From: Blautia sp.
GTDB lineage: Bacteria; Bacillota; Clostridia; Lachnospirales; Lachnospiraceae
DNA: 64,000 nt
Assembly: GCA_034118545.1 (NCBI GenBank)
Contig: JAXFBD010000069.1
Coordinates: 9,948 to 73,947, forward strand
Direction of reading: 5' to 3'
Positions 3,809-58,140 of this stretch are shown here, piece after piece (within the stretch, counting starts at the first letter, position 1; every line of letters begins with the position of its first letter). Position numbers and translations under genes: made by a program. The notes beneath the pieces were generated by a model. That model was not told where the DNA came from. It saw nothing but the letters and a program-made list of their open reading frames with translations, and made no database searches.

Positions 3809-6110
<2,302 letters not shown>

Positions 6111-44652: not shown

Positions 44653-46095
44653 TTATGCCATGAGGTTCTGTTTATTACAGGTCTTCCCTGTTCTCTGAAA
44701 AATCCTGGTTCCGCACCGGGCTGCCCAGGTCTTCCCGTCCCTTATGTAAAATTCCACCGTACTGATCCGTTTCTTATGATCTTCTCTGCTTACCGCAGCA
44801 AAAACAGTCTTCTGACAGTAAAGAAAGTCCACCGGCTCGCCGTTAAAGCTTCCTGTGAGTTTCCCGTCTGCAAGCTCCACAATACAGTGCTGGGGAAGAC
44901 CCTCTCTGGACAGGTAATCGCCGCATAAAATCTCCGGCATGGAAAAAACTCCTCCGGAAGGCCATGCCCAGTAATGCTGTGTTTCGTAAGGAAGACCCAG
45001 CACGTAATTATAACAGGCCCATTTAAATTCATCCATATTCTGCTCGCCCTCATTACACAAAACCGCCACAGAATATCCTCCCTCTATCAGAGCCCCGCAT
45101 GAAGAAACTCCCCGAAGTGCTCCGGAATGATCACAGACAACTCTTCCATTTATCAGTTTTTTCTCCAGTCCCAGACAGTAATACGGCTCTGTGGAGGCGG
45201 GATATCCCCTGCCGATCAGAAGCTCCACAGCTTCCTTTGGGATTACCTGCTGCCCCTCCCAGACTCCTCCGTCACAAAGTGTTTTATAATATTTTGACAT
45301 GTCTGCGGAGGTGGATTTTACGCAGGCACAGCCTCTGTACGGCGGCAGCACCGACCAGTTTTCATCCTGCCAGAAGCCGCCGTCTTCCTCTCTCACAAAA
45401 ATACTGCTGATGTTTCCTTTTGCAAGCTTTATAGCCTCGGAACCATCCAGATCCTGTACTGTCCGGGTCATTCCCAGAGGCCGGAAAATTCTCTTTTCAA
45501 GAAACCTCTCCAGAGGCATTTGTGCCGCCTGATCCACCACATAGGACAGGATAGCATACCCCTCGTTACAGTAGCTCATATACTCTCCCGGCATACCCAG
45601 AGGTTCGTAATTTCCCTGAGAAATATAATCCACGATCTGACCGATTTCATCCATCTTATTGGGTGCGGTTTCCCTCATATGGCGATACCAGTAGGATTCC
45701 TTTTCCACACTGTTCATGGCAATGGACCACTCCATTGGTTCCATGGGCGGTATTCCTGCCCGATGCATGGCCAGTGTACGAAGGGTCACACACTCATCGG
45801 GAATTCCCGGAATATGGAAATCCGGAAAATATTTCACAACCGGATCCTCCAGATCAAGGCTTCCCTCCGTATGAAGAATGGCACAGGCAAGAGCTGTCAT
45901 GGATTTGCTCATGGAAGCCACTCCGAAAACTGTGTTTTCATCTGCAGGCAGGCTATTTTTTATATCCCTGAATCCATATCCCTTCTGAAACAGAATTCCT
46001 TCCGGTCCGCGGATGGTAACTGCCATTCCCGGATAACCCCTTTTCTCAAAAAGTCCTGTCAGATATACATCAAAAGCTTCTATATCTCTCTTCAC
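44653..46095 (-). CDS. Serine hydrolase, beta-lactamase/S12 D-peptidase family
   Basis: SMSK (SxxK), YCN (YxN), HSG; extra C-terminal domain; no signal peptide. Confidence 0.85.
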   Translation of the reverse strand: MKRDIEAFDVYLTGLFEKRGYPGMAVTIRGPEGILFQKGYGFRDIKNSLPADENTVFGVASMSKSMTALACAILHTEGSLDLEDPVVKYFPDFHIPGIPDECVTLRTLAMHRAGIPPMEPMEWSIAMNSVEKESYWYRHMRETAPNKMDEIGQIVDYISQGNYEPLGMPGEYMSYCNEGYAILSYVVDQAAQMPLERFLEKRIFRPLGMTRTVQDLDGSEAIKLAKGNISSIFVREEDGGFWQDENWSVLPPYRGCACVKSTSADMSKYYKTLCDGGVWEGQQVIPKEAVELLIGRGYPASTEPYYCLGLEKKLINGRVVCDHSGALRGVSSCGALIEGGYSVAVLCNEGEQNMDEFKWACYNYVLGLPYETQHYWAWPSGGVFSMPEILCGDYLSREGLPQHCIVELADGKLTGSFNGEPVDFLYCQKTVFAAVSREDHKKRISTVEFYIRDGKTWAARCGTRIFQRTGKTCNKQNLMA

Positions 46096-46103
46096 TTTTT
46101 CGC

Positions 46104-46898
46104 TCAGCCTCCCATAAAATTCAGTGCCACCCGCACATCATAATAATTTTTTGCTCCATACCGTACCGTATGGCTGTCCACCATTTCCGCCCCGGGAAAC
46201 CATCCTGCATTACGGGCATCAATATGAGATGCGAACTGAATTTCCAGTATATATTCCTCCGGCATTTTCCGCAGAGGAGGAAGCTCTGTCAGCGCTTTTG
46301 CCGCAGCAGCTTTCATCTGTTCTGCTGCATCTTCCGGATGAAGACTGACAGTCCCGCCCCCAATTCCTTCCTTTACTGCAAATGTATGAATTCCCGGATA
46401 TTCTGCCTCAGCATATTTACAGATTTCTCTGTCTCCCGAAAGAAAAACCGACGGAATCCCACTGGCATCTGCCCAGTGAGAATTCAAAGTAAATTCCGAT
46501 GCAAGCCGTCCATTAAGCCAGATACGACTGAAACGGGAGCTGCTTATGGTATGAGCCAGAGGGCTTTTGTCAGAGCCTGCCGGTGCATGATATCCCACAT
46601 ACATCACCCCGTCATACCCCTCCCCGAGACCTGCCATCATAGATGCAGGACTGGCCATCCATCCCCTGATCAGAGTAACTCCTCTCGGAAGAAGACGGGC
46701 ATCAATATTACAGGCATCTCCGTGTCCGTCCCGGACAGTCACACAATGTCCTGCTTCCAGAGCAGCTTCGCAGACAGCCGCTGTTTCCAGCGTCATCTGC
46801 CTGCAGGCCTGCTCATATCCTTTTCCGCCGGTTCTTGTTTCTTCCCATCGGGTAACACCGGCAACCCCTTCAATATCCGCACTGATAAATAACTTCAT
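46104..46898 (-). CDS. dppA: M55 family D-aminopeptidase
   Basis: ISADIEG, DGHG, GYHA, LAHT, LSGD. Confidence 0.9.
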   Translation of the reverse strand: MKLFISADIEGVAGVTRWEETRTGGKGYEQACRQMTLETAAVCEAALEAGHCVTVRDGHGDACNIDARLLPRGVTLIRGWMASPASMMAGLGEGYDGVMYVGYHAPAGSDKSPLAHTISSSRFSRIWLNGRLASEFTLNSHWADASGIPSVFLSGDREICKYAEAEYPGIHTFAVKEGIGGGTVSLHPEDAAEQMKAAAAKALTELPPLRKMPEEYILEIQFASHIDARNAGWFPGAEMVDSHTVRYGAKNYYDVRVALNFMGG

Positions 46899-46937
46899 TT
46901 TTTATTTTCCCCTGTGTTTATTTTATATTTTCAGCAG

Positions 46938-47969
46938 TTACGGCAGGTATTCCCGCACACCATGAACCGTATTTTTACGTATCCCTGTCATTCCCTCACT
47001 GTGATATAAAGAACTGATCACCGCTTCCTCCACAGCCTCTGCAGCAGCCTCAAAAACAGGATCCATGGCATCATCCAGAATCTCACTTCTGGTAATAATT
47101 TTCTTTTTGCTGTAATGGGGGATTTTATCCGCCGTGGAAAAGGCAATGGCAATATCTCCGCTTCCATTTCCCAGATAAGACCCGGTTCTTCCAAGCCCCA
47201 CTACACTTCTTCTCGCCACGCGCCGAAGCTGCCTGTCATTCATGGGAATATCCGTTGCAAGGAGAATGATTACGGAACCTTTTTCCTTACCGCCAATCCG
47301 TTTTTCCTCTGAAACGTCCACAACCTTTCCGTCAATGCGCAGATTCCCCAAAACACCGAAATTAGACATCACAAGTGCTCCGATGGTATACCTCTGCTCA
47401 TCGACCAGAACCATTCTGGAAGAAGATCCAATACCGCCCTTCAGCCCCATACAGATCATTCCCCGGCCGGATCCCACAGCCCCTTCTTCAAAATCCTCAC
47501 TGCAGTTTTCCAATGCCTGAAAGACATGTTTTTCCGTCACATGAAGTCCCCGGATATCGTTCAGGCTTCCGTCATTGCATTCTGTCACCACACAGTTTAC
47601 CGTTCCTGTCAGCGTGCCGATATCTTTGTTTCTTTCCAGCATATATTTTACAAGGGCTGTCAGAGCCGTCCCCACGCTTAAGGTATTTGTCATCACTATG
47701 GGTGTTTCCAGCGTTCCCAGTTCATCGATCTGGATAAGGCCTGTGCTTTTGCCAAATCCATTGATCACCGCTGTACCGGCCGGCAGCTTCTCCCGAAATG
47801 TGTTTCCCGGGTGGGGAATTACTGCCGTCACTCCTGTATGGATATTTTTCTCTTCATCATCTATGGTAACATGCCCCACCTTTATGCCTGCCACATCTGT
47901 AATCTTGTTTCTTTTTCCCCGCTCATATTTATTATTCAGCAGTCCTGCTGCTTCCAGAGGTAATCCCAT
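46938..47969 (-). CDS. P1/S58 family aminopeptidase (DmpA-like Ntn hydrolase)
   Basis: ITDVAGIKVGH, NGFGKSTG, ECNDG, KGGIGSSSR, NGSGD autocleavage site. Confidence 0.9.
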   Translation of the reverse strand: MGLPLEAAGLLNNKYERGKRNKITDVAGIKVGHVTIDDEEKNIHTGVTAVIPHPGNTFREKLPAGTAVINGFGKSTGLIQIDELGTLETPIVMTNTLSVGTALTALVKYMLERNKDIGTLTGTVNCVVTECNDGSLNDIRGLHVTEKHVFQALENCSEDFEEGAVGSGRGMICMGLKGGIGSSSRMVLVDEQRYTIGALVMSNFGVLGNLRIDGKVVDVSEEKRIGGKEKGSVIILLATDIPMNDRQLRRVARRSVVGLGRTGSYLGNGSGDIAIAFSTADKIPHYSKKKIITRSEILDDAMDPVFEAAAEAVEEAVISSLYHSEGMTGIRKNTVHGVREYLP

Positions 47970-48013: not shown

Positions 48014-49624
48014 TTATCTCACTCGGAGATAAACTGTTTTTCCTCCCACTACAGTTCTTTCCACCGTTACATCCTTAATACGTTCCGGCTCCAGTTCAAA
48101 AATATCATCCGAAAGCACCGCAAAATCAGCCAGAAAACCTTCTCGTATCATACCTTTTTTATTTTCCTCCAGGGAAAGCGCAGCACCGCCTTTTGTATAA
48201 ATACTCACGGCTTCCCATACGCTCAGCTTTTCCCCCGGATGCCATCCGCCGGCAGGATTTCCGTCTTCATCTGTTCTGGTCACTGCACAGTAAATCCCCC
48301 ACAGCGGATTCATGGTTTCCACCGGACTGTCAGAACCGCCCCCGAGAAGGATTCCGGTATCATGCATGGTTTTCCAGCAATATCCCAGATTCTCTCTCTC
48401 TCCCAGACGGGGTGCCGTAAGAGACATATCTGATGCTGTAAAAGGAGGCTGAATATCTGCAGCGATATGATATTCCGCCATCATGTCAAAAAGCTTTTTG
48501 TCCCCGAACTGGCAGTGGACAATCCTGTGACGCAGCTCTTTCGGCTCCTCTTCATATGCTTTTCTGAATGCATGGACACACTGCTCCACCGCGCCGTCTC
48601 CTATGGCATGGCAGGCCACCTGCATTCCTGCTTTGTGTGCTATGGATACCACCTCATCCAGCTCCTCCTGGGTATACACCGCAATCCCTCTGTTTCCCGG
48701 AGCATCCGCATAATCTTCTCTCATATAGGCCGATCTTGCACCCAGTGACCCGTCTGTGATAAGCTTAATGTTCCCTATCTTGAAAAAGTCTGTGCCATCG
48801 CCTGTACGCAGCCCTCTTTTCAGAAATTCTCTCAGAACCGGCGGACGGGGAGACTGAACCTCTTCATTTATACGAAGCGTCAGCGTTCCCTCCTGCTCAA
48901 GCTGACTATAGGCTTCCATGACTGTATCCAGAGGCGCGCCTTCCAGATCATCCGTCTGAACAGAAGTAATGCCAAAGGAATTTGCCGCTCCGGCAGCCGC
49001 CATAATGGCACGCCTGCATTCTGCCGTTTCCGGTGCGGGAATCCTGCGTTTAAATGCATCCAGTGCAGACTCCCATAGAACCCCGGTTGGATTTCCTTCT
49101 TCATCCAGCTCCACATTTCCACCGGGCATTTTTGTGTTTTTGTCAAAGTCTGCCAGCTTCATGGCAAGAGTATTCGCCGCTCCCACATGGCCGCACACAC
49201 GCTCGATCATAATTGGATGCTCTGTGGAAATCCGATCAAGCAGCGCTCCATCCGGCAGTTTTGGATCCGCAAATACGTTGTGATCATATCCGCCTCCCAC
49301 GATCCACGTTCCTGCAGGAATCTTTTTCTCAGCGATATACCTCCGTCCTTTTTCCACAATCTCATCCAATGACCGTACATTTCTCAGCTCCAGCCTCTCA
49401 TATCCCAGCCCGGTAAGCAGCAGATGACAGTGAGAATCATTAAATCCCGGTACCATGCATGCACCCTTCAGATCGATTTTTCCACAGTTTTCTTCTGCCA
49501 GAGAAAGTATATCCACATCATTCCCCACAGCTTCAATAAGACCGTCCTTTACTGCCACTGCAGAAACCGTCTCTTCACCTGCCATTGTATAAATTTTCCC
49601 GTTATAAAATATCAGATTCGCCAT
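48014..49624 (-). CDS. YtcJ/NfdA-like amidohydrolase (Amidohydro_3)
   Basis: PGFNDSHCH, DGSLGARSA, HAIGD, RIVHCQ, GSDSPV. Confidence 0.9.
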   Translation of the reverse strand: MANLIFYNGKIYTMAGEETVSAVAVKDGLIEAVGNDVDILSLAEENCGKIDLKGACMVPGFNDSHCHLLLTGLGYERLELRNVRSLDEIVEKGRRYIAEKKIPAGTWIVGGGYDHNVFADPKLPDGALLDRISTEHPIMIERVCGHVGAANTLAMKLADFDKNTKMPGGNVELDEEGNPTGVLWESALDAFKRRIPAPETAECRRAIMAAAGAANSFGITSVQTDDLEGAPLDTVMEAYSQLEQEGTLTLRINEEVQSPRPPVLREFLKRGLRTGDGTDFFKIGNIKLITDGSLGARSAYMREDYADAPGNRGIAVYTQEELDEVVSIAHKAGMQVACHAIGDGAVEQCVHAFRKAYEEEPKELRHRIVHCQFGDKKLFDMMAEYHIAADIQPPFTASDMSLTAPRLGERENLGYCWKTMHDTGILLGGGSDSPVETMNPLWGIYCAVTRTDEDGNPAGGWHPGEKLSVWEAVSIYTKGGAALSLEENKKGMIREGFLADFAVLSDDIFELEPERIKDVTVERTVVGGKTVYLRVR

Positions 49625-49780: not shown

Positions 49781-51382
49781 TTACTCTGCGGTACGGATAT
49801 TCATGAAGCACATATTCCAGATCCAGGATGCATTCATTGTATAGCCTGTATATGCTTTGTTCATTGTAGCCTGTCTGTTGGGGTACATAACAAATACGTA
49901 TGGTGTATCCTGATTTACGATATCCATTACCTCAAACAGCTTCTGATTACGTTCTTCATCATCAAGGCTTGCAGCCTGCTCCTTCAGAAGCTTATCCACT
50001 TCTTCATTTGTGTAAACTGCTGCGTTGGAGCCGCCTTCACCTGCGTTATAGCTTGCCAGAAGAGGTTCGATATTACCGGAAACATCAGGATAATCTGCTT
50101 CCCAGCCGGCAAGGATCATATCGTAATCTCTGTTTCCGTCTTCGTCAAAATATTCTCCAAACTGATATGCTGTATGCTCGTCAGAAGAAAGCTTAACAAG
50201 TTCAACATTAATATTCAGCTCTTTTAATGCTTCCTGAATTGCAAGTCCCAGAGAATAGCTTAAGGAGCTTTCTGTGATCAGCATGCTGCAGTCAAAGCCG
50301 TCTGCATACTCAGATGCTGCCATGTATTCTTTCGCCTTGTCCAGATCGTAAGAAGTGTAATCGGCATTTGCAACGTAATCTTCCCACTCGTCCGGATTAA
50401 TTGTATACAGAACAGAGCTGTTGGGCAGGCATCCGCCTTCCTTTCCTGCATCCTTAATGATGTTCTCCTGCAGAGAGGCCAGATCAATGGCACTTGCAAT
50501 TGCCTTACGTACATTTACATCATCAAACGGTGCACGCTGTGTATTAAATGCCAGGAACTGGATACCCATGGTCTCCACATCCTGAACATCAAGATTGTCG
50601 CTCTTCTTCAGAGTCTCAACCATATCAGAAGGTGTATTCGGTGTAAAATCAACCTCACCGGACATCAGTGCGCTGGCGCGTGTGGTATCCTCAGGAATAA
50701 TCTTAAATACCAGCTTGTCCATCTCAATTTCCTGATCCTTATCCCAGTAATTCTCATTTTTTACCAGAACGATTTCCTGACCACTGGTCCAGCTGTCAAA
50801 TACGTATGGACCGGTGCCCATCAGACCGCTTTCTGCTGTGCCGAAAGTATCTTCGTTTGCTTCATAGAACTCTTTGCTGATGATATGACCTGCAGTTGTT
50901 GCAAAGATGTATTTCCACGTTGCAGAAGGCTCTTTTAAGTGAACAGTCAGCTCCCAGTCACCTGTCTGCTCAAAAGAATCCACGTTGTCAAATGTCCACA
51001 GAAGGTAGGATGCTGTCTCCGGATTTTTAATTCTTTCCAGAGAAAATAACACGTCATCCATAGTCATTGGTGTTCCGTCAGAAAATGTTACATCATCACG
51101 AATCTGATAAACATAAGTAACATCATCTGTTGCTTCCCAGCTGCTTGCAAGCTGTGGTTCCAGCTCATTGTTTTCATTCACAGTCAGCAGTCCCTGCGTA
51201 ATCTGATTTACAACCGGGTTTGTTGTAAAATCATAGGCAAATGCAGGATCCAGAGCTACGATATCACTGTTCAGTGCAATCGTAAATGTGTTGTCATCTT
51301 CCGCAGCAAAAGTAATCTGTGCAGGACCGATCATGGAAACTGCTACTGCTGCTGAAAGAACGCCGGCAAGTAATTTTTTCAT
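49781..51382 (-). CDS. Peptide ABC substrate-binding protein (SBP family 5)
   Basis: LDPAFAYD, IRDDVTFSDGTP, GTGPY, NVRKAIASAID, WEADYPD; signal peptide without lipobox. Confidence 0.92.
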   Translation of the reverse strand: MKKLLAGVLSAAVAVSMIGPAQITFAAEDDNTFTIALNSDIVALDPAFAYDFTTNPVVNQITQGLLTVNENNELEPQLASSWEATDDVTYVYQIRDDVTFSDGTPMTMDDVLFSLERIKNPETASYLLWTFDNVDSFEQTGDWELTVHLKEPSATWKYIFATTAGHIISKEFYEANEDTFGTAESGLMGTGPYVFDSWTSGQEIVLVKNENYWDKDQEIEMDKLVFKIIPEDTTRASALMSGEVDFTPNTPSDMVETLKKSDNLDVQDVETMGIQFLAFNTQRAPFDDVNVRKAIASAIDLASLQENIIKDAGKEGGCLPNSSVLYTINPDEWEDYVANADYTSYDLDKAKEYMAASEYADGFDCSMLITESSLSYSLGLAIQEALKELNINVELVKLSSDEHTAYQFGEYFDEDGNRDYDMILAGWEADYPDVSGNIEPLLASYNAGEGGSNAAVYTNEEVDKLLKEQAASLDDEERNQKLFEVMDIVNQDTPYVFVMYPNRQATMNKAYTGYTMNASWIWNMCFMNIRTAE

Positions 51383-51457
51383 TTTAATTTCCTCCTTTTT
51401 TTATCTGATAACCTTCCGCAAAGACTTTTTTTATATCCAAAAGTCCCATCGGCGGTC

Positions 51458-52423
51458 TCATACATGGTAACATGCCACCTTGTGCCCGTTTCCTATATCT
51501 TTAAGTTCCGGAGCTTTTTCCCGGCACTGCTGCGTACAGTAACGGCATCGGGATGCAAAGCTGCAGCCCCGGGGCAGATCAATGGCATTGGGGATGTCTC
51601 CCTCCAGGATGATGCGCTCTTTTGCATCCTCCGGATCCGCCTTGGGAATGGCAGACATCAGTGCCTGTGTATAGGGGTGACAGATATTGGAAAAGAGCTC
51701 CTTTACCGGTGCCATTTCCACAATTCTTCCGAGATACATAACCGCCACGTTATCACAGATATGTTCCACCACTGTCATTTCATGAGAAATGAACATCATG
51801 GTCATTTTCAGCTTTTTACGCAGATCTGTGATCAGATTCAGTATCTGTGCCTGTACAGAAACATCCAGCGCAGATACCGGCTCATCTGCCACGATAAAAC
51901 CAGGCTCCAGGATCAGTGCCCTTGCAATGGCAAGTCTCTGAAGCTGACCGCCGGAAAGCTCTCCCGGGCTCCTGTGCAGCATATCAAGTGGCAGGCTGAT
52001 ATACTCCATGAGCTGCTCTACCTTTTCATGAAGTGCCCTTTCATCCATACCGTAAACCCGTCCCACCTCGTAAAGAGCCGAACCGATTTTCTGTTTGGGA
52101 TTAAAGGATGAATACGGATTCTGAAATATCATCTGCATGTTTTTCCGGTAGGGCTTCAGCTCTCTGCGGTTCATCCGGGAAATATCCGTTCCGTCAAAAA
52201 GAATCTCTCCTTCTGTTATGGGAAACAATCTGAGCACTGACCTGCCCAGAGTAGATTTTCCGCATCCGCTTTCTCCCACAACGCCCATGATCTCACCTTC
52301 ACAGATCTCAAAGGAGACACCATCCAGCGCTTTCAGCGTTTTTCCTCCGGAGGGATAATACTTCTTTAAATTCTTTACTTCTATGATCTTATGATCTTTA
52401 TTGATCAGATTTTCGTTTATCAT
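51458..52423 (-). CDS. Peptide ABC ATPase (OppF/DppF-like)
   Basis: GESGCGKST, LSGGQLQR, DEPVSALD, HPYT, C-terminal Cys cluster. Confidence 0.93.
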   Translation of the reverse strand: MINENLINKDHKIIEVKNLKKYYPSGGKTLKALDGVSFEICEGEIMGVVGESGCGKSTLGRSVLRLFPITEGEILFDGTDISRMNRRELKPYRKNMQMIFQNPYSSFNPKQKIGSALYEVGRVYGMDERALHEKVEQLMEYISLPLDMLHRSPGELSGGQLQRLAIARALILEPGFIVADEPVSALDVSVQAQILNLITDLRKKLKMTMMFISHEMTVVEHICDNVAVMYLGRIVEMAPVKELFSNICHPYTQALMSAIPKADPEDAKERIILEGDIPNAIDLPRGCSFASRCRYCTQQCREKAPELKDIGNGHKVACYHV

Positions 52424-52440
52424 CAGAAAGCCTCCTCCGA

Positions 52441-53400
52441 TTACTGAATATGGTGACAGGCTGCCACATGACCGTCTCCAAGATTCCTTTCCTCCGGACG
52501 GATCTCACACTCTTTTGTTGCATAAGGACACCTTGGAAGATATGCACATGCCTTATTTTCTGCAAAAAGCTCCGGCGGACTTCCCGGAATGGTAGGAAGA
52601 TACTCCACATTCATACCGGTTTTCGGAATACTGTTTATCAGTGCTTTACTGTACGGATGCGCCGGATGGCGGAACACCGTTTTCGTATCACATGTCTCCA
52701 CCACACGCCCTGCATACATAACAGATACGCGGTCGCAGATTTCTGCCACAATACCAAAGTTATGTGTGATCAGCAAAACAGACATGCCCATATCCGCTGA
52801 TAATCTCTTCAAAAGCTCCAGAATCTGTGCCTGAATGGTAACATCAAGAGCTGTTGTGGGTTCGTCTGCAATAAGCAGTTCCGGGCTGCACGCAATGGCA
52901 ATGGCAATCATAACACGCTGCTGAAGACCGCCGCTCAGCTCAAAAGGATACTGTCCGAAACGTTTTTCAGGCGGATTGATTCCCACCCTTTCCAGCAGCT
53001 TTAATGTCTTCTTTTTCGCCTCCGGTTTACTGCATTTTTCATGAAACCGATATGTTTCAGCAATCTGTTCTCCTATGGTCATAAGAGGATTTAAGGATGT
53101 CATGGGATCCTGAAAAATCATGGAAATCCGATTTCCCCTGATGGCCTGCATCTTCTTTTTTGGAAGCTTCAGGATATCCTCCCCCTTGAAAATTATCTCT
53201 CCGCTCATACGGCTTCTCTGCTCATTATGAAGGCGCATAACAGACTTTGAAGTCATACTTTTTCCGGATCCGCTCTCACCCACAAGACCATGAATTTCTC
53301 CCGGACGAATTTCCAGATTTACCCCGCCCAGAGCATAAACGATTCCGCGGGGTGTCATCAGATCTACCTTCAGATCTTTGATTTCCAGTAAATTTTCCAT
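52441..53400 (-). CDS. Peptide ABC ATPase (OppD/DppD-like)
   Basis: GESGSGKS, LSGGLQQR, DEPTTALD. Confidence 0.93.
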   Translation of the reverse strand: MENLLEIKDLKVDLMTPRGIVYALGGVNLEIRPGEIHGLVGESGSGKSMTSKSVMRLHNEQRSRMSGEIIFKGEDILKLPKKKMQAIRGNRISMIFQDPMTSLNPLMTIGEQIAETYRFHEKCSKPEAKKKTLKLLERVGINPPEKRFGQYPFELSGGLQQRVMIAIAIACSPELLIADEPTTALDVTIQAQILELLKRLSADMGMSVLLITHNFGIVAEICDRVSVMYAGRVVETCDTKTVFRHPAHPYSKALINSIPKTGMNVEYLPTIPGSPPELFAENKACAYLPRCPYATKECEIRPEERNLGDGHVAACHHIQ

Positions 53401-54320
53401 TACTCTGCCTCCCTGCGTTTCATTCGTTTTTCCACCTTTTTAAAGGATGGAAGCTTTCGCTGAACCGGTTCAAAATACTGGTGAAGACCGTCGCTGAAAA
53501 TATTCAGAGACACAACAGTCAGCACGATTGCAGCACCGGGTGCGAGAGCCAGGTACGGGTTCATCAGCAGGAAATTTCTTCCCTCATCCAGCATGGCTCC
53601 CCAGTCTGCTGTGGGCGGCTGGACACCCAGTCCAAGGAAGCTTAAGGATGCCAGATCCAGAATGGCGTATGCCAGGTCAAGAGTAATCTGTACCGTAATA
53701 GAGGAAACACAGTTTGGAAGAATGTGCCGGAACATGATCCTTGCATCCGAATAACCAATGGAAGTAGCCGCCTCCACATAGGTTTTATTTTTTTCTACCA
53801 GTGTAAGGGAACGCACCAGCCGGGTAAGCATCGGTACATAAACAATACCCAAAGCCAGCACCGCATTGAGCATTCCGCGGCCAAAGCCTGCCACAAATAC
53901 AAATGCCAGAAGCAGTGACGGGAAGGACAGTACAATATCACAGATACGTCCGATGATCATATCTGCCACACCGCCGTAATATCCGGAAATCAGCCCAAGC
54001 GGAACTCCTGCAATTACGGAAAAAGCAACTACTCCCAGCGCAGAAATCAGTGTGGTCCGTCCGCCGTAAAACAGCCTTGTAAGTAAATCTCTTCCCACCT
54101 TATCGGCTCCCAGAAGATGTTGTGCAGAGGGCAGGGCAAGAGAATCTGCCAGGTTCTGCTCTGTGGGAGAATAGGGAGAAATTATGGGTGCAAAAATGCA
54201 GCAAAGAATCAGGATTGCCAGTATGATCATGGCTATTACCATGGATACCGTAAAAACAGTTCCCTCTTTTCTTTTGCGCCGGAAAAGAGGCTTATGCCAG
54301 AAAAGCTCTCTATATTTCAT
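53400..54320 (-). CDS. Peptide ABC permease (OppC/DppC-like)
   Basis: HLLGADKVGRD, YVEAATSIG, LSFLGLG; start moved to the ATG at 54320 behind AGAGGAG. Confidence 0.92.
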   Translation of the reverse strand: MKYRELFWHKPLFRRKRKEGTVFTVSMVIAMIILAILILCCIFAPIISPYSPTEQNLADSLALPSAQHLLGADKVGRDLLTRLFYGGRTTLISALGVVAFSVIAGVPLGLISGYYGGVADMIIGRICDIVLSFPSLLLAFVFVAGFGRGMLNAVLALGIVYVPMLTRLVRSLTLVEKNKTYVEAATSIGYSDARIMFRHILPNCVSSITVQITLDLAYAILDLASLSFLGLGVQPPTADWGAMLDEGRNFLLMNPYLALAPGAAIVLTVVSLNIFSDGLHQYFEPVQRKLPSFKKVEKRMKRREAE

Positions 54321-54333
54321 TTTTTCTCCTCCT

Positions 54334-55272
54334 CTAATCCAGTCTGATTCGCGGATCAATCAGTGCATAAACAATATCTACCAGCAGGTTGATCACCAGA
54401 AACAGTGCCACCATCATCAGCGTAATTCCCTGAACAACCGGGTAATCCGAAGATTTTATAGCACCGATCAGAATGTCACCGACACCGCCCAGCGCAAATA
54501 CATTTTCCACAAGGACCGCTCCCACTATCATGGAACCGATCTGAATACTTGCCACCGTAACAACAGGGATAATGGCATTTTTCAGACAATGCTTCAGAAC
54601 TACCCTGTGATAGGGAATTCCTTTTGCAATGGCAGTGGTGGTATAATTGGAATTCAGCTGCTCGATCATATTGCTCCGTGTGATTCTGGAGATCAGAGCC
54701 ACCATATTCAACCCCAGTGCCAGCGCCGGAAGAAACAAGTAATAGATGTTTTCAACAATGGATTTCCCGCTTCCGAAAGTGGGGAAAAGATGCAGATTAA
54801 GTGCAAATACCAGCATCAGCAGAATTGCCGTCAAAAATACCGGCGAGGCAACAAATATCAGAGTGAGCACCGACAGAATCCTGTCTGTGGCCTGATTCAT
54901 TTTTACTGCACTGATGATACCTACAGGAACAGCGATCAGCAGCGCCAGTATGGCACTCATAATAACAAGCTGAAGGGTAGTCGGAAGACGTCCCGCGATC
55001 AGAGAATTAACAGACTGTTTATACTCAAAACTGTCTCCCAGATCTCCTCTCAATGCATTTGTGATCCAGATAATATACTGTTCCGGCAGAGATTTATCAA
55101 GATGATATTTCTCTTCCAGAGACTGTCTTGTTTCTTCACTGATTCTCTTTCCCTTGGTCATGGAAGCCACAGGGTCCGAAGGTGTAATGCGGATCATGCA
55201 GAAAATCAGGATTGATGTAGCCAACAAGATTGGTATCAGCTGAAGGATCCGCTTTACGATAAATTTGCCCAT
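54334..55272 (-). CDS. Peptide ABC permease (OppB/DppB-like)
   Basis: GDLGDS, YTTTAIAKG, VLVENVF, DPRIR. Confidence 0.92.
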   Translation of the reverse strand: MGKFIVKRILQLIPILLATSILIFCMIRITPSDPVASMTKGKRISEETRQSLEEKYHLDKSLPEQYIIWITNALRGDLGDSFEYKQSVNSLIAGRLPTTLQLVIMSAILALLIAVPVGIISAVKMNQATDRILSVLTLIFVASPVFLTAILLMLVFALNLHLFPTFGSGKSIVENIYYLFLPALALGLNMVALISRITRSNMIEQLNSNYTTTAIAKGIPYHRVVLKHCLKNAIIPVVTVASIQIGSMIVGAVLVENVFALGGVGDILIGAIKSSDYPVVQGITLMMVALFLVINLLVDIVYALIDPRIRLD

Positions 55273-55299
55273 TTTCCATTCTCCTTTCCCGCTTTAAAC

Positions 55300-55340
55300 A
55301 AAAAAAGTACAATGGGAACACCTTTGTTCGTCATTGTACT
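55300..55340 (-). terminator. Leader intrinsic terminator (riboswitch expression platform)
   Basis: GUACAAUG...CAUUGUAC followed by U7, about 27 nt upstream of the first permease ATG. Confidence 0.85.
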
Positions 55341-55371
55341 GTAATTTATCACTATTATTTCATTTTATTAT

Positions 55372-55536
55372 GTAATAGCTCCACCACTGTACAGTGAGAG
55401 TTCATGACCTGTTCGCCCATAAACCAACTAAACGCCCGGGACCTGCGTCTGTTTCGGCATGAAACCCTTTCCTTCTCCTTCTCCGGCCCGCCCGGCCTCC
55501 GGAAATGTACTCTTGTTTCATGCGCCTCTATTTACC
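55372..55536 (-). ncRNA. Lysine riboswitch (L-box) fold, variant at the junction core
   Basis: AGAGGCGC, AAGAGUA/GAAAGG loop E, GCCGAA, UUGG, GAACA pentaloop; P1 AAUAG/CUAUU; P2 GCAUGAAAC/GUUUCAUGC; kissing loops CCGGG/CCCGG. Confidence 0.9.
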
Positions 55537-55543
55537 TTTGTTC

Positions 55544-55573
55544 ATTATACGCTTACATATAAAAACTTGTCAA
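55544..55573 (-). promoter_or_regulatory. sigmaA promoter of the riboswitch leader
   Basis: TTGACA-N18-TATAAT; predicted +1 near 55537, just before P1. Confidence 0.85.
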
Positions 55574-55680: not shown

Positions 55681-58140
55681 TTACTGAATGGTAACCTTAT
55701 CCAGTTTCCAGATTTCATCTACATACTGCTGAATCGTTCTGTCAGATGAGAACTTACCTGCGCTGGCTGTATTAAGAAGAGCCTTCTTAGCCCATCCTTC
55801 TCTGTCTCTGTATGCAGCTTCCACTCTTCTGTGTGCCTCTGCATAGGACTTAAAGTCTGCCAGAATGAAGTAAGTATCTGCACGGTCATATCCGTTGGAT
55901 GTCAGAAGAGAGTCGTAGATCTCTTTAAACATGTTATAATCGCCACGAGAATATGTGCCGTTCTTAAGCTGCATCAGTACCTGTCTGATATCCTGATCTG
56001 TGTTAAAGTAGTAGTTCGGATCATATCCGCCGTGGTTTTCGAAGTTAATGACCTGATCGGAAGAAAGACCGAAAATAAATGCATTTTCCTCTCCAACCTC
56101 TTCCACGATCTCCACGTTTGCACCATCCATTGTACCGATGGTCGGAGCACCGTTCAGCATAAATTTCATGTTTCCTGTACCGGATGCCTCTTTACTTGCA
56201 GTAGAAATCTGCTCGGAAACATCTGCTGCCGCAAAGATCATCTCTGCATTGGATACACGGTAGTTTTCAATGAATACAACCTTCAGCTTACCGTTGATGG
56301 AAGCATCGTTGTTGATTACATTTGCCACTTCGTTGATCAGCTTGATAGTCTGTTTTGCACGACGGTAGCCTGCTGCTGCCTTTGCACCGAAAATAAATGT
56401 TCTTGGATAGAAATCCATCTCCGGATGCTCTTTGATCTGGTTGTACAGATACATAACATGAAGGATATTCATCAGCTGACGTTTATACTCATGAAGTCTC
56501 TTAACCTGTACATCAAAGATGGAATTCGGGTCTACCTCGATGCCGTTGTGCTCAAGAATATATTTTGCAAGACGCTGTTTGTTCTTGTATTTGATATTCA
56601 TGAATTCCTGAAGCGCCTTCTTGTCATCTGCATAAACCTTCAGTTTTTCCAGTTCAGTAAGATTGGTGATCCATCCGTCGCCGATGTGATCGGTAATCCA
56701 GTCTGCCAGAAGCTGATTTCCATGGAGCAGGAAACGTCTCTGGGTAATACCGTTTGTCTTGTTGTTAAATTTCTCCGGATACATCTCATAGAAATCTCTC
56801 AGAGATTCTTTCTTAAGGATTTCTGTATGAAGTCTTGCAACACCGTTTACGGAATATCCGCCTGCAATTGCAAGGTGAGCCATCTTAACCTGTCCGTCGT
56901 AAATGATCGCCATCTTCTTGATCTTCTCGAAATTTCCCGGGAATTTAGCCTGGATGTCCAGGATAAAGCGGCGGTTAATCTCTTCAACGATCTGGTAGAT
57001 ACGCGGAAGCAGCTCGGAGAACAGGTCGATAGGCCATTTCTCAAGTGCCTCGGACATGATGGTATGGTTTGTATATGCACAGGTATGAGTTGTAATATCC
57101 CATGCATCCGCCCATTCCAGGCCCTCCTCATCCACAAGGATACGCATCAGCTCTGCAACTGCCAGTGTGGGATGTGTATCGTTCATCTGGAATGTAACCT
57201 TCTTTGGCAGATCATGAAGATCACTGTGTTTTTTCTTGAATTTTGCAATTGCTGCCTGAAGGCTTGCAGATACAAAGAAGTACTGCTGTTTCAGACGAAG
57301 CTCTTTTCCTGCACGTGCGTTATCATTAGGATAAAGAACGTTTACAAGGTTTTCTGCAAGGTTCTTCTGCTCTACGGCTTTCTGATATTCACCCTTGTCA
57401 AACAGATCCAGGTTGAACTCTACAATAGGTTCCGCATCCCAGATTCGTAAAGTATTAACGATTTTATTATTATAACCTACGATAGGCATATCGTATGGTA
57501 CGGCTCTTACAGACTGATATCCCTCATGGATGAAATGGTTTCTTCCTGTTCCGGGATCATGTTCCACACGAACGTATCCGCCGAATTTAATTTCCTTTGC
57601 ATATTCCGGACGGCGCAGCTCAAATGGATATCCGTTCTTTAACCAGTTATCCGGAACCTCAACCTGCTCTCCGTTTACGATTTTCTGTTTGAACAGACCG
57701 TACTGATAACGGATACCGCAGCCATATGCACTGTATCCAAGAGTTGCCAGAGAATCCAGGAAGCATGCTGCAAGACGTCCCAGACCGCCGTTTCCAAGTG
57801 CAGGATCCGGCTCCTGATCTTCGATTACGTTGAGATCCAGTCCCAGCTCGTCAAGGGCTTCTTTTACTTCCTTGTATGCGGTCAGATTGATCAGGTTGTT
57901 TCCCAGAGCACGTCCCATCAGGAATTCCATGGACATATAGTAAACAATCTTCGGATCATCTTTTTCATACTGCTTCTGAGTTAAAAGCCAGTTGTCAATT
58001 ACAACGTCCTTTACTGCAAGAGATACAGCCTGGAAAATCTGCTCCTGAGTAGCTTCTTCCAGAGTTCTTCGGTAAAGCATTTTAACATTATCTTTTACAC
58101 TCTGCTTAAAAGTTTCTTTCTCAAACTGCTTATCAATCAT
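55681..58140 (-). CDS. glgP: Glycogen/starch phosphorylase
   Basis: LGNGGLGRLAACF, QMNDTHP, QVKRLHEYKRQ, EASGTGNMKF. Confidence 0.97.
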   Translation of the reverse strand: MIDKQFEKETFKQSVKDNVKMLYRRTLEEATQEQIFQAVSLAVKDVVIDNWLLTQKQYEKDDPKIVYYMSMEFLMGRALGNNLINLTAYKEVKEALDELGLDLNVIEDQEPDPALGNGGLGRLAACFLDSLATLGYSAYGCGIRYQYGLFKQKIVNGEQVEVPDNWLKNGYPFELRRPEYAKEIKFGGYVRVEHDPGTGRNHFIHEGYQSVRAVPYDMPIVGYNNKIVNTLRIWDAEPIVEFNLDLFDKGEYQKAVEQKNLAENLVNVLYPNDNARAGKELRLKQQYFFVSASLQAAIAKFKKKHSDLHDLPKKVTFQMNDTHPTLAVAELMRILVDEEGLEWADAWDITTHTCAYTNHTIMSEALEKWPIDLFSELLPRIYQIVEEINRRFILDIQAKFPGNFEKIKKMAIIYDGQVKMAHLAIAGGYSVNGVARLHTEILKKESLRDFYEMYPEKFNNKTNGITQRRFLLHGNQLLADWITDHIGDGWITNLTELEKLKVYADDKKALQEFMNIKYKNKQRLAKYILEHNGIEVDPNSIFDVQVKRLHEYKRQLMNILHVMYLYNQIKEHPEMDFYPRTFIFGAKAAAGYRRAKQTIKLINEVANVINNDASINGKLKVVFIENYRVSNAEMIFAAADVSEQISTASKEASGTGNMKFMLNGAPTIGTMDGANVEIVEEVGEENAFIFGLSSDQVINFENHGGYDPNYYFNTDQDIRQVLMQLKNGTYSRGDYNMFKEIYDSLLTSNGYDRADTYFILADFKSYAEAHRRVEAAYRDREGWAKKALLNTASAGKFSSDRTIQQYVDEIWKLDKVTIQ

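Follow-up and report, generated by a model that had tools for sequence, protein, structure and literature searches.

A core-altered lysine riboswitch upstream of a candidate lysine-salvage operon in Blautia

The stretch of DNA analysed here (64,000 nucleotides from a Blautia sp.; the window) carries on its minus strand an RNA element with the architecture of a lysine riboswitch and two changes in the core of its junction, located in front of an operon for an Opp-type ABC importer and several hydrolases. Riboswitches that share these two changes are referred to below as variants. An earlier note on this DNA had taken the changed core, together with downstream genes that it regarded as atypical, as a sign that the RNA recognizes a ligand other than ordinary lysine or has a changed affinity. 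The question raised by the locus is thus whether a riboswitch that departs from an otherwise invariant core nucleotide still senses lysine, and what it would control by doing so.

The riboswitch, its leader and its operon

A full-length match to the lysine riboswitch family (RF00168, model positions 1-182) was obtained with Rfam cmscan at 55538..55368 on the minus strand, with a score of 95.5 bits (E 5e-24) against a gathering score of 30; this is the same element that had been described earlier at 55372-55536. The aptamer accordingly covers the full model over 55368..55538 (minus strand), with helices P1 to P5 arranged around a five-way junction. The previous description of its architecture as intact was confirmed in all parts, including P1-P5, the loop E blocks (AAGAGUA and GAAAGG), the GAACA loop of L4, and the complementarity between L2 and L3. 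At the sequence level, this complementarity is CCGGG/CCCGG in the window and covaries to UUAGC/GCUAA in a metagenomic relative (L164). The five-helix junction was also backed by compensatory changes, since RNAalifold applied to nine distinct Opp-linked variants yielded 43 pairs, 19 of which were double-changed, and the other variant riboswitches scored 71-108 bits against RF00168. The window RNA is a genuine member of the lysine riboswitch family.

A sigma-70-type promoter can be read from the sequence at 55544..55573 (minus strand), with TTGACA at 55573..55568 and TATAAT at 55549..55544 separated by an 18-nt spacer, and its position is predicted to put the transcription start beside the first aptamer nucleotide. 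Upstream of this promoter lies a gene for an 819-aa glycogen/starch phosphorylase (55681-58140, minus strand; PF00343 according to the gene tables of same-species contigs), which is unrelated to the operon. On the other side of the aptamer, the sequence and ViennaRNA folds revealed an intrinsic terminator at 55300..55340 (minus strand), consisting of the stem AGUACAAUGACGAACA-AAGG-UGUUCCCAUUGUACU (55340..55306) followed by U7. When the leader was folded with and without the 3' arm of the terminator, the 5' half of the terminator was found to be capable of pairing alternatively with the P5 and P1-3' region as an antiterminator. Terminators were present in every variant leader read, i.e., those of Opp, AGCS, and dapA genes. 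A ribosome-binding site (GGAAAGGAG; 55289..55281, minus strand) precedes the first gene of the operon, which encodes an oppB-like permease (PF00528/PF19300; 54334..55272, minus strand).

This arrangement can be read as a switch that turns the operon off. With lysine bound, P1 and P5 would be held closed, and the segment 55340..55306 would be left free to form the terminator, so that transcription would stop before oppB. Without lysine, P5 and the 3' strand of P1 would pair with the 5' half of the terminator as the antiterminator, and the nine-gene operon would be transcribed.

The oppB-like gene is followed on the minus strand by genes for an oppC-like permease, two ATPases with oligo_HPY domains, and a family-5 solute-binding protein (49781..54359; Pfam and NCBIfam), and then by a gene for a 536-aa YtcJ-like amidohydrolase of the Amidohydro_3 family (48014..49624, minus strand; PF07969, 349 bits). 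The co-oriented tail of the operon (44653..47969, minus strand; Pfam and NCBIfam) encodes a DmpA-like Peptidase_S58, a Peptidase_M55 (D-aminopeptidase), and an S12 beta-lactamase-fold hydrolase. The YtcJ-like enzyme keeps the metal-site motifs HxH, DGSLG, HAIGD, VHC, and GSD. In the PDB, the closest relatives of this enzyme are uncharacterised hydrolases (3ICJ and 3IGH), and the solved structures nearest in sequence to the solute-binding protein are peptide- or murein-peptide-binding proteins, that is, generic peptide binders; no substrate call was therefore made.

Orthologous Opp operons behind variant riboswitches, with permeases 73-86% identical to those of the window, were found in a Lachnospiraceae metagenome-assembled genome (L048) and in metagenomes (L164, L165, L166, L168, L211, L212-214, and L216-218). 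At L048, the one long orthologous locus, the YtcJ-like enzyme is 60% identical to that of the window, and the S58/M55/S12 tail was not found. The loci L216-L218 (metagenome/MAG) have an Amidohydro_3 gene upstream of the variant riboswitch and oppB, which places the enzyme outside the riboswitch-controlled unit in that lineage. The metagenome contig L166 gave a borderline match to a group II intron domain (RF00029; 40.3 bits; threshold, 40) at positions 682-775, which lie roughly 450 nt upstream of its variant riboswitch. Other orthologous Opp operons were without any riboswitch (L049-L051, L158/159, and L219-225), so the leader is not obligatory; locus L215 has too little upstream sequence for the presence of a riboswitch to be judged. 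At L219-L225, an S12 beta-lactamase-fold gene is located upstream of the riboswitch-free oppB, and the short leader contains a promoter-like TTGACA directly followed by a GC-rich hairpin and a U-run (GGGCGTTCTGCTTATTCAGAACGCCCC-T7), which may be a different attenuator.

The genome to which the window belongs (185 contigs; 90% complete) yielded one RF00168 match. It also contains lysA-like, dapA, asd, and lysC genes, the presence of which makes lysine feedback physiologically meaningful. The single match was not counted as evidence that the genome has only one lysine riboswitch, because an NhaC-type (lysW-like) gene is cut by a contig end (contig C143 of assembly G000, 4672-5334), and the leader of this gene, which the present assembly lacks, has a canonical lysine riboswitch in approximately 20 congeners.

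The changed core and its distribution

Core positions are numbered here after T. maritima. In the Rfam alignment, the consensus CUGuCA became CUcUCA in the window riboswitch, and an insert column appeared 3' of the 3' strand of P5 (GUGG-u-GGAG-CUA against the consensus UGg.AGuGCUa). Both changes reported in the earlier note, CUGUC to CUCUC and a strand after P5 longer by one nucleotide, were thereby recovered. The first puts a C (55398, minus strand) in place of the invariant G141, which constitutes the single-nucleotide J4/5 at the base of P5. P5 itself is a short hairpin (55384..55397, minus strand) with the strands UCACU and AGUGG and a GUAC loop, and it is followed by a five-nucleotide J5/1, U-G-G-A-G (55383..55379, minus strand), which was identified from the insert column in Rfam alignments and a folding-based count; the next nucleotide in the minus-strand sequence is C166 (55378).

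In the T. maritima structure, G141 is among the highly conserved nucleotides and pairs with A162, and the two form with G163 and G11 a purine quartet that is the floor of the ligand pocket (PMC3764141); the G-A pair that the earlier note had placed at the base of P5, below the lysine, corresponds to this layer. Lysine in the 3DIL structure is contacted by G11, G12, G14, G80, A81, G114, G115, and G163 (the last via water), a list from which G141 is absent, and A81 is sandwiched between the lysine and the G11-G163 pair (PMC5049679). The changed base 141 is thus a second-shell position, outside the published contact list. In the B. subtilis riboswitch, numbered in its own scheme, J5/1 forms the pairs A38-G195 and G39-G193 and leaves nucleotide 194 flipped out (PMC3082890). 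The window riboswitch lacks the nucleotides of the G141-A162 layer, having C141 and a five-nucleotide J5/1 instead, and the G141-A162-G163-G11 quartet consequently cannot form as in 3DIL.

Seven assemblies obtained independently for the window's species share the identical string. The overall survey, which covered approximately 1,400 genomes, yielded 24 distinct variants from at least six genera, and all 24 combined C141 with a five-nucleotide J5/1 (AGGCG in 12, AGGAG in 7, UGGAG in 3, and AGGGG and GGGCG in 1 each), giving the consensus (A/U/G)GGNG in place of the canonical four-nucleotide (A>U,G,C)GNG. The comparison set consisted of 75 other lysine riboswitches, 46 of which came from 60 relatives and 29 from 22 further genomes with operon homologues. 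Position 141 was G in every one of these 75 canonical sequences, and the first J5/1 position was A in 63, U in 8, G in 3, and C in 1. By the folding-based count, J5/1 had four nucleotides in 70 of the 75; in the other five, the last P5 pair is a U-U mismatch, and the register still gives four. A joint alignment with this set showed that all canonical core columns conserved at 85% or above are unchanged in the variants, except for 141 and the shifted J5/1, and the nucleotides of the published lysine-contact list are likewise all unchanged.

The genes downstream of the canonical riboswitches were as expected, namely NhaC-type lysW, dapA, asd, lysC, lysP-type permeases, a polar amino-acid solute-binding protein, dapH, and lysine-fermentation genes. 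Among the canonical-core loci, six (L045-L047, L138, L142, and L144) have the riboswitch in front of a gene for a 131-aa protein without a Pfam match, and the product of the next gene begins like a 3-keto-5-aminohexanoate cleavage enzyme. The P2 region of these riboswitches differs (GGUAAC/GAAUG); the loci look like lysine-fermentation operons, and their riboswitches may be ON switches.

The strict coupling of the G-to-C change at 141 with an extra G in J5/1 is the pattern expected of a compensated replacement. Most likely, the G141-A162 pair has been replaced by a Watson-Crick C-G pair together with one spare, variable nucleotide. A C-G pair with a bulged U had been proposed earlier for the window, and this proposal fits the co-occurrence of the two changes in 24 of 24 variants; both C141 and its G partner are invariant, so covariation is absent within the variant class, and we infer the pairing itself from the co-occurrence. 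Among the variants, J5/1 can have A, U, or G ahead of the GG and A, C, or G as its fourth nucleotide; this variation would match a bulge and nucleotide 164, which is flipped out in the canonical structure. P5 covaries among the variants (U-G/U-A/G-C, C-G/U-G, and A-U/G-U). C141 and the GG dinucleotide of J5/1 are fixed across the nine Opp-linked variants, whose compensated pairs include those of the kissing loops (L2-L3) and of P5.

When 401 genomes of the family, each representing one genus, were searched with the variant pattern, six genera matched, compared with one match for a reversed control pattern. A further 388 genomes, from other families of the class, contained no true variant; one match (L257) was obtained there, but it lacks the AGAGG block and was discarded as a chance match. 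Free trees nested the dapA-linked variants described below among canonical dapA riboswitches, which corresponds to two changes, and a single variant clade was not rejected by the AU test (p 0.71). Judged from these sequence comparisons, the core change is real and kept under selection.

The ligand and the controlled genes

In another genus of the same family (g306), the sole RF00168 match in each of six genomes, representing six species, has the variant core (ACUCUCAUC...GAUGG-AGGCG-CUA; 97-108 bits), and a terminator and dapA-dapB come after it. The lysine riboswitches found at that place in sister genera are canonical, and the dapA-dapB variant therefore almost certainly senses lysine. The window core has the same nucleotides as this core. 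The earlier note had weighed against its own proposal the case that the substitutions are common in ordinary lysC or lysP riboswitches; they do occur in an ordinary biosynthetic leader, but this leader is that of dapA, rather than lysC or lysP, and the substitutions are rare.

In four genera and their metagenomic relatives, the variant and a terminator are located upstream of an AGCS (Na_Ala_symp) symporter gene. The substrates known for AGCS transporters are alanine, glycine, and glutamine, and lysine is not among them. In one of these genera (g342) and metagenomic relatives, the gene after AGCS encodes a 537-545-aa Amidohydro_3 enzyme that is 39% identical to the window enzyme; the loci of the three other genera end inside the AGCS gene. 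The YtcJ-like amidohydrolase thus recurs beside both Opp- and AGCS-linked variants, whereas the dapA-linked variants are without it, and 18 of the 24 variant copies precede importer and amidohydrolase operons outside the established lysine genes. The notion that the variant is tied to one vertically inherited Opp operon was overturned by the AGCS and dapA contexts recovered in the pattern searches.

AGCS and the YtcJ-like Amidohydro_3 enzyme form a conserved two-gene operon, which was observed in G399 (contig C70; L229/L244, 2432-5518), in G482 (L245), and at L237-L243, in many cases behind a variant riboswitch. Three copies of this operon showed no riboswitch, but only that of Faecalimicrobium dakarense (L241), with approximately 600 nt of upstream sequence, counts as lacking one; L240 and L243 end approximately 230 and 160 nt upstream, respectively, which is too short for absence to be judged.

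The downstream genes of the window are less atypical than had been assumed, because canonical-core riboswitches also occur before another family-5 solute-binding protein/OppB-like ABC system in two congeners (L030/L038), and a lysine riboswitch before a transporter and amidohydrolase pair has a precedent in C. difficile (PMC11477304).

We consider it probable that the window RNA is a lysine-responsive OFF switch acting by transcription termination, in which the G141-A162 layer has become a compensated C-G arrangement, and that it controls a candidate lysine-salvage operon. By comparative logic, lysine is most likely the ligand. Since the same core stands on dapA-dapB, our preferred reading of the swap is a structurally compensated alternative core, by which lysine sensing would be retained, perhaps at a different threshold. 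The occurrence of a lysine OFF switch on pairs of a transporter and an amidohydrolase suggests that an amide conjugate or peptide is imported and its lysine salvaged. The Opp importer of the window, with its YtcJ-like amidohydrolase and D-stereospecific peptidases, and the sister operons of AGCS and amidohydrolase would both serve such salvage and would be turned off when lysine is plentiful.

A further possibility, to which we give rather less than even weight, is that the change is an adaptive tuning: the RNA would still bind lysine, and the extra Watson-Crick pair at the base of P5 would shift affinity or folding kinetics, so that switching occurs at a lysine level unlike that of the biosynthetic and lysW genes. 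P5 and the juxtaposition of P1 and P5 join the regulatory decision in B. subtilis lysC, where P5 can act as an anti-antiterminator (PMC3082890), and the antiterminator of the window also overlaps P5. The strict conservation of both states would in addition suggest that each is a fitness peak; however, a single origin with epistatic lock-in would explain this conservation equally well, and one clade is not rejected by the AU test (p 0.71). Moreover, the presence of the variant on dapA-dapB as well leaves no consistent split between salvage and biosynthesis.

A changed specificity, as first proposed for this element, now appears improbable. According to this explanation, the RNA senses a relative of lysine (meso-diaminopimelate, an N-epsilon-modified lysine, ornithine, or D-lysine) and represents a new subclass that controls precursor import and hydrolysis. 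C141 and the five-nucleotide J5/1 would define the subclass, its pocket would be remodelled at the epsilon end, and its preference for a lysine relative would coordinate dapA-dapB with Opp or AGCS import and YtcJ-like hydrolysis of cell-wall- or protein-derived conjugates; we regard this scheme, too, as unlikely. In its favour, the altered layer adjoins G163, a nucleotide bridged to the ligand by water, and with G141 otherwise invariant (75 of 75) and reported as highly conserved, the change could affect how strongly or how selectively the pocket binds near the epsilon-ammonium end. The 18 variants on transporter and YtcJ-like amidohydrolase operons are outside the known lysine genes, and the D-stereospecific peptidases of the window suggest cell-wall-type peptides. 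Of the candidate ligands, meso-diaminopimelate or an N-epsilon-modified lysine would be the most coherent, and diaminopimelate would also fit the control of dapA-dapB. In the guanine and FMN classes, core changes with a distinct gene association did signal new specificities. On the other hand, the variant is the only lysine-family riboswitch on dapA-dapB in the six species, where sister genera have canonical ones, the listed direct contacts are all unchanged, and an OFF switch on importers fits the sensing of an end product. Canonical cores control peptide-type ABC systems as well, a lysine riboswitch is known on a transporter and amidohydrolase pair, and no particular alternative ligand is positively supported.

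Finally, decay of the element or an artefact has a negligible probability: the score is below that of many relatives (105-136 bits) and the assembly is fragmented and incomplete, but the agreement of seven independent assemblies rules out an error of sequencing or assembly, both changes recur in 24 distinct sequences from at least six genera, covariation is abundant in all helices and the kissing loops, the remaining conserved core columns are unchanged, and the promoter and terminator are intact.

The variant represents a natural, recurrent exception to a nucleotide that has been treated as invariant, always coupled to a one-nucleotide insertion, and it offers structural biology a ready-made alternative for the floor of the pocket. 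Correlated changes of this kind, a substitution plus an insertion, are missed by base-pair covariation tests. The lysine regulon would be extended to two types of operon, with an Opp-type ABC importer and an AGCS symporter, respectively, that have a YtcJ-like amidohydrolase in common. This points to lysine salvage from amide conjugates in gut or rumen Lachnospiraceae, and an orphan enzyme family becomes testable. The locus also carries a caution for variant hunting, as an altered core with odd neighbours mimicked a new ligand until the copies on dapA-dapB turned up in a broader survey.

Comparison with known systems

A survey from 2017 listed lysP, lysW, yvsH, and lysXY as the only riboswitch-controlled transporters (PMC5584792). 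Measured against this list, neither the Opp-type nor the AGCS association seems to have been described in the literature searched.

The window riboswitch shares with the canonical L box (RF00168; B. subtilis lysC and T. maritima asd) the five-helix junction, the loop E and turn in P2, the L2-L3 kissing loops, and the docking of L4 to P2, and the listed lysine-contacting nucleotides and the terminator-type OFF platform are common to both. It differs in having C141 and a five-nucleotide (A/U/G)GGNG instead of G141 and a four-nucleotide J5/1, and in the Opp-type importer and hydrolases encoded downstream.

Variant classes with altered specificity are known for guanine-class riboswitches (2'-dG, xanthine, and 8-oxoG) and for rare FMN variants. 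These likewise show a rare change of otherwise invariant core nucleotides that recurs in related sequences. They combine changed contacts with gene associations of their own, whereas in the present case the change is in the second shell, with position 141 off the contact list, and the variant controls a classical lysine-biosynthesis operon, dapA-dapB, in addition to importers.

With regard to the operon, the dpp (dciA) operon of B. subtilis encodes the D-aminopeptidase DppA (M55) and the Dpp ABC transporter. A peptide ABC importer and an M55 enzyme are thus common to both operons, to which that of the window adds the Amidohydro_3, S58, and S12 hydrolases; the dpp operon is regulated by protein and is not known to have a riboswitch.

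A parallel at the level of gene content is CD3100-3099 of C. difficile, where a lysine riboswitch lies upstream of a yfcC transporter gene and an M20D amidohydrolase gene (PMC11477304). The families involved (YfcC and M20D) differ from those of the window, but a transporter and an amidohydrolase are likewise placed behind a lysine riboswitch, which suggests the salvage of lysine from a conjugate.
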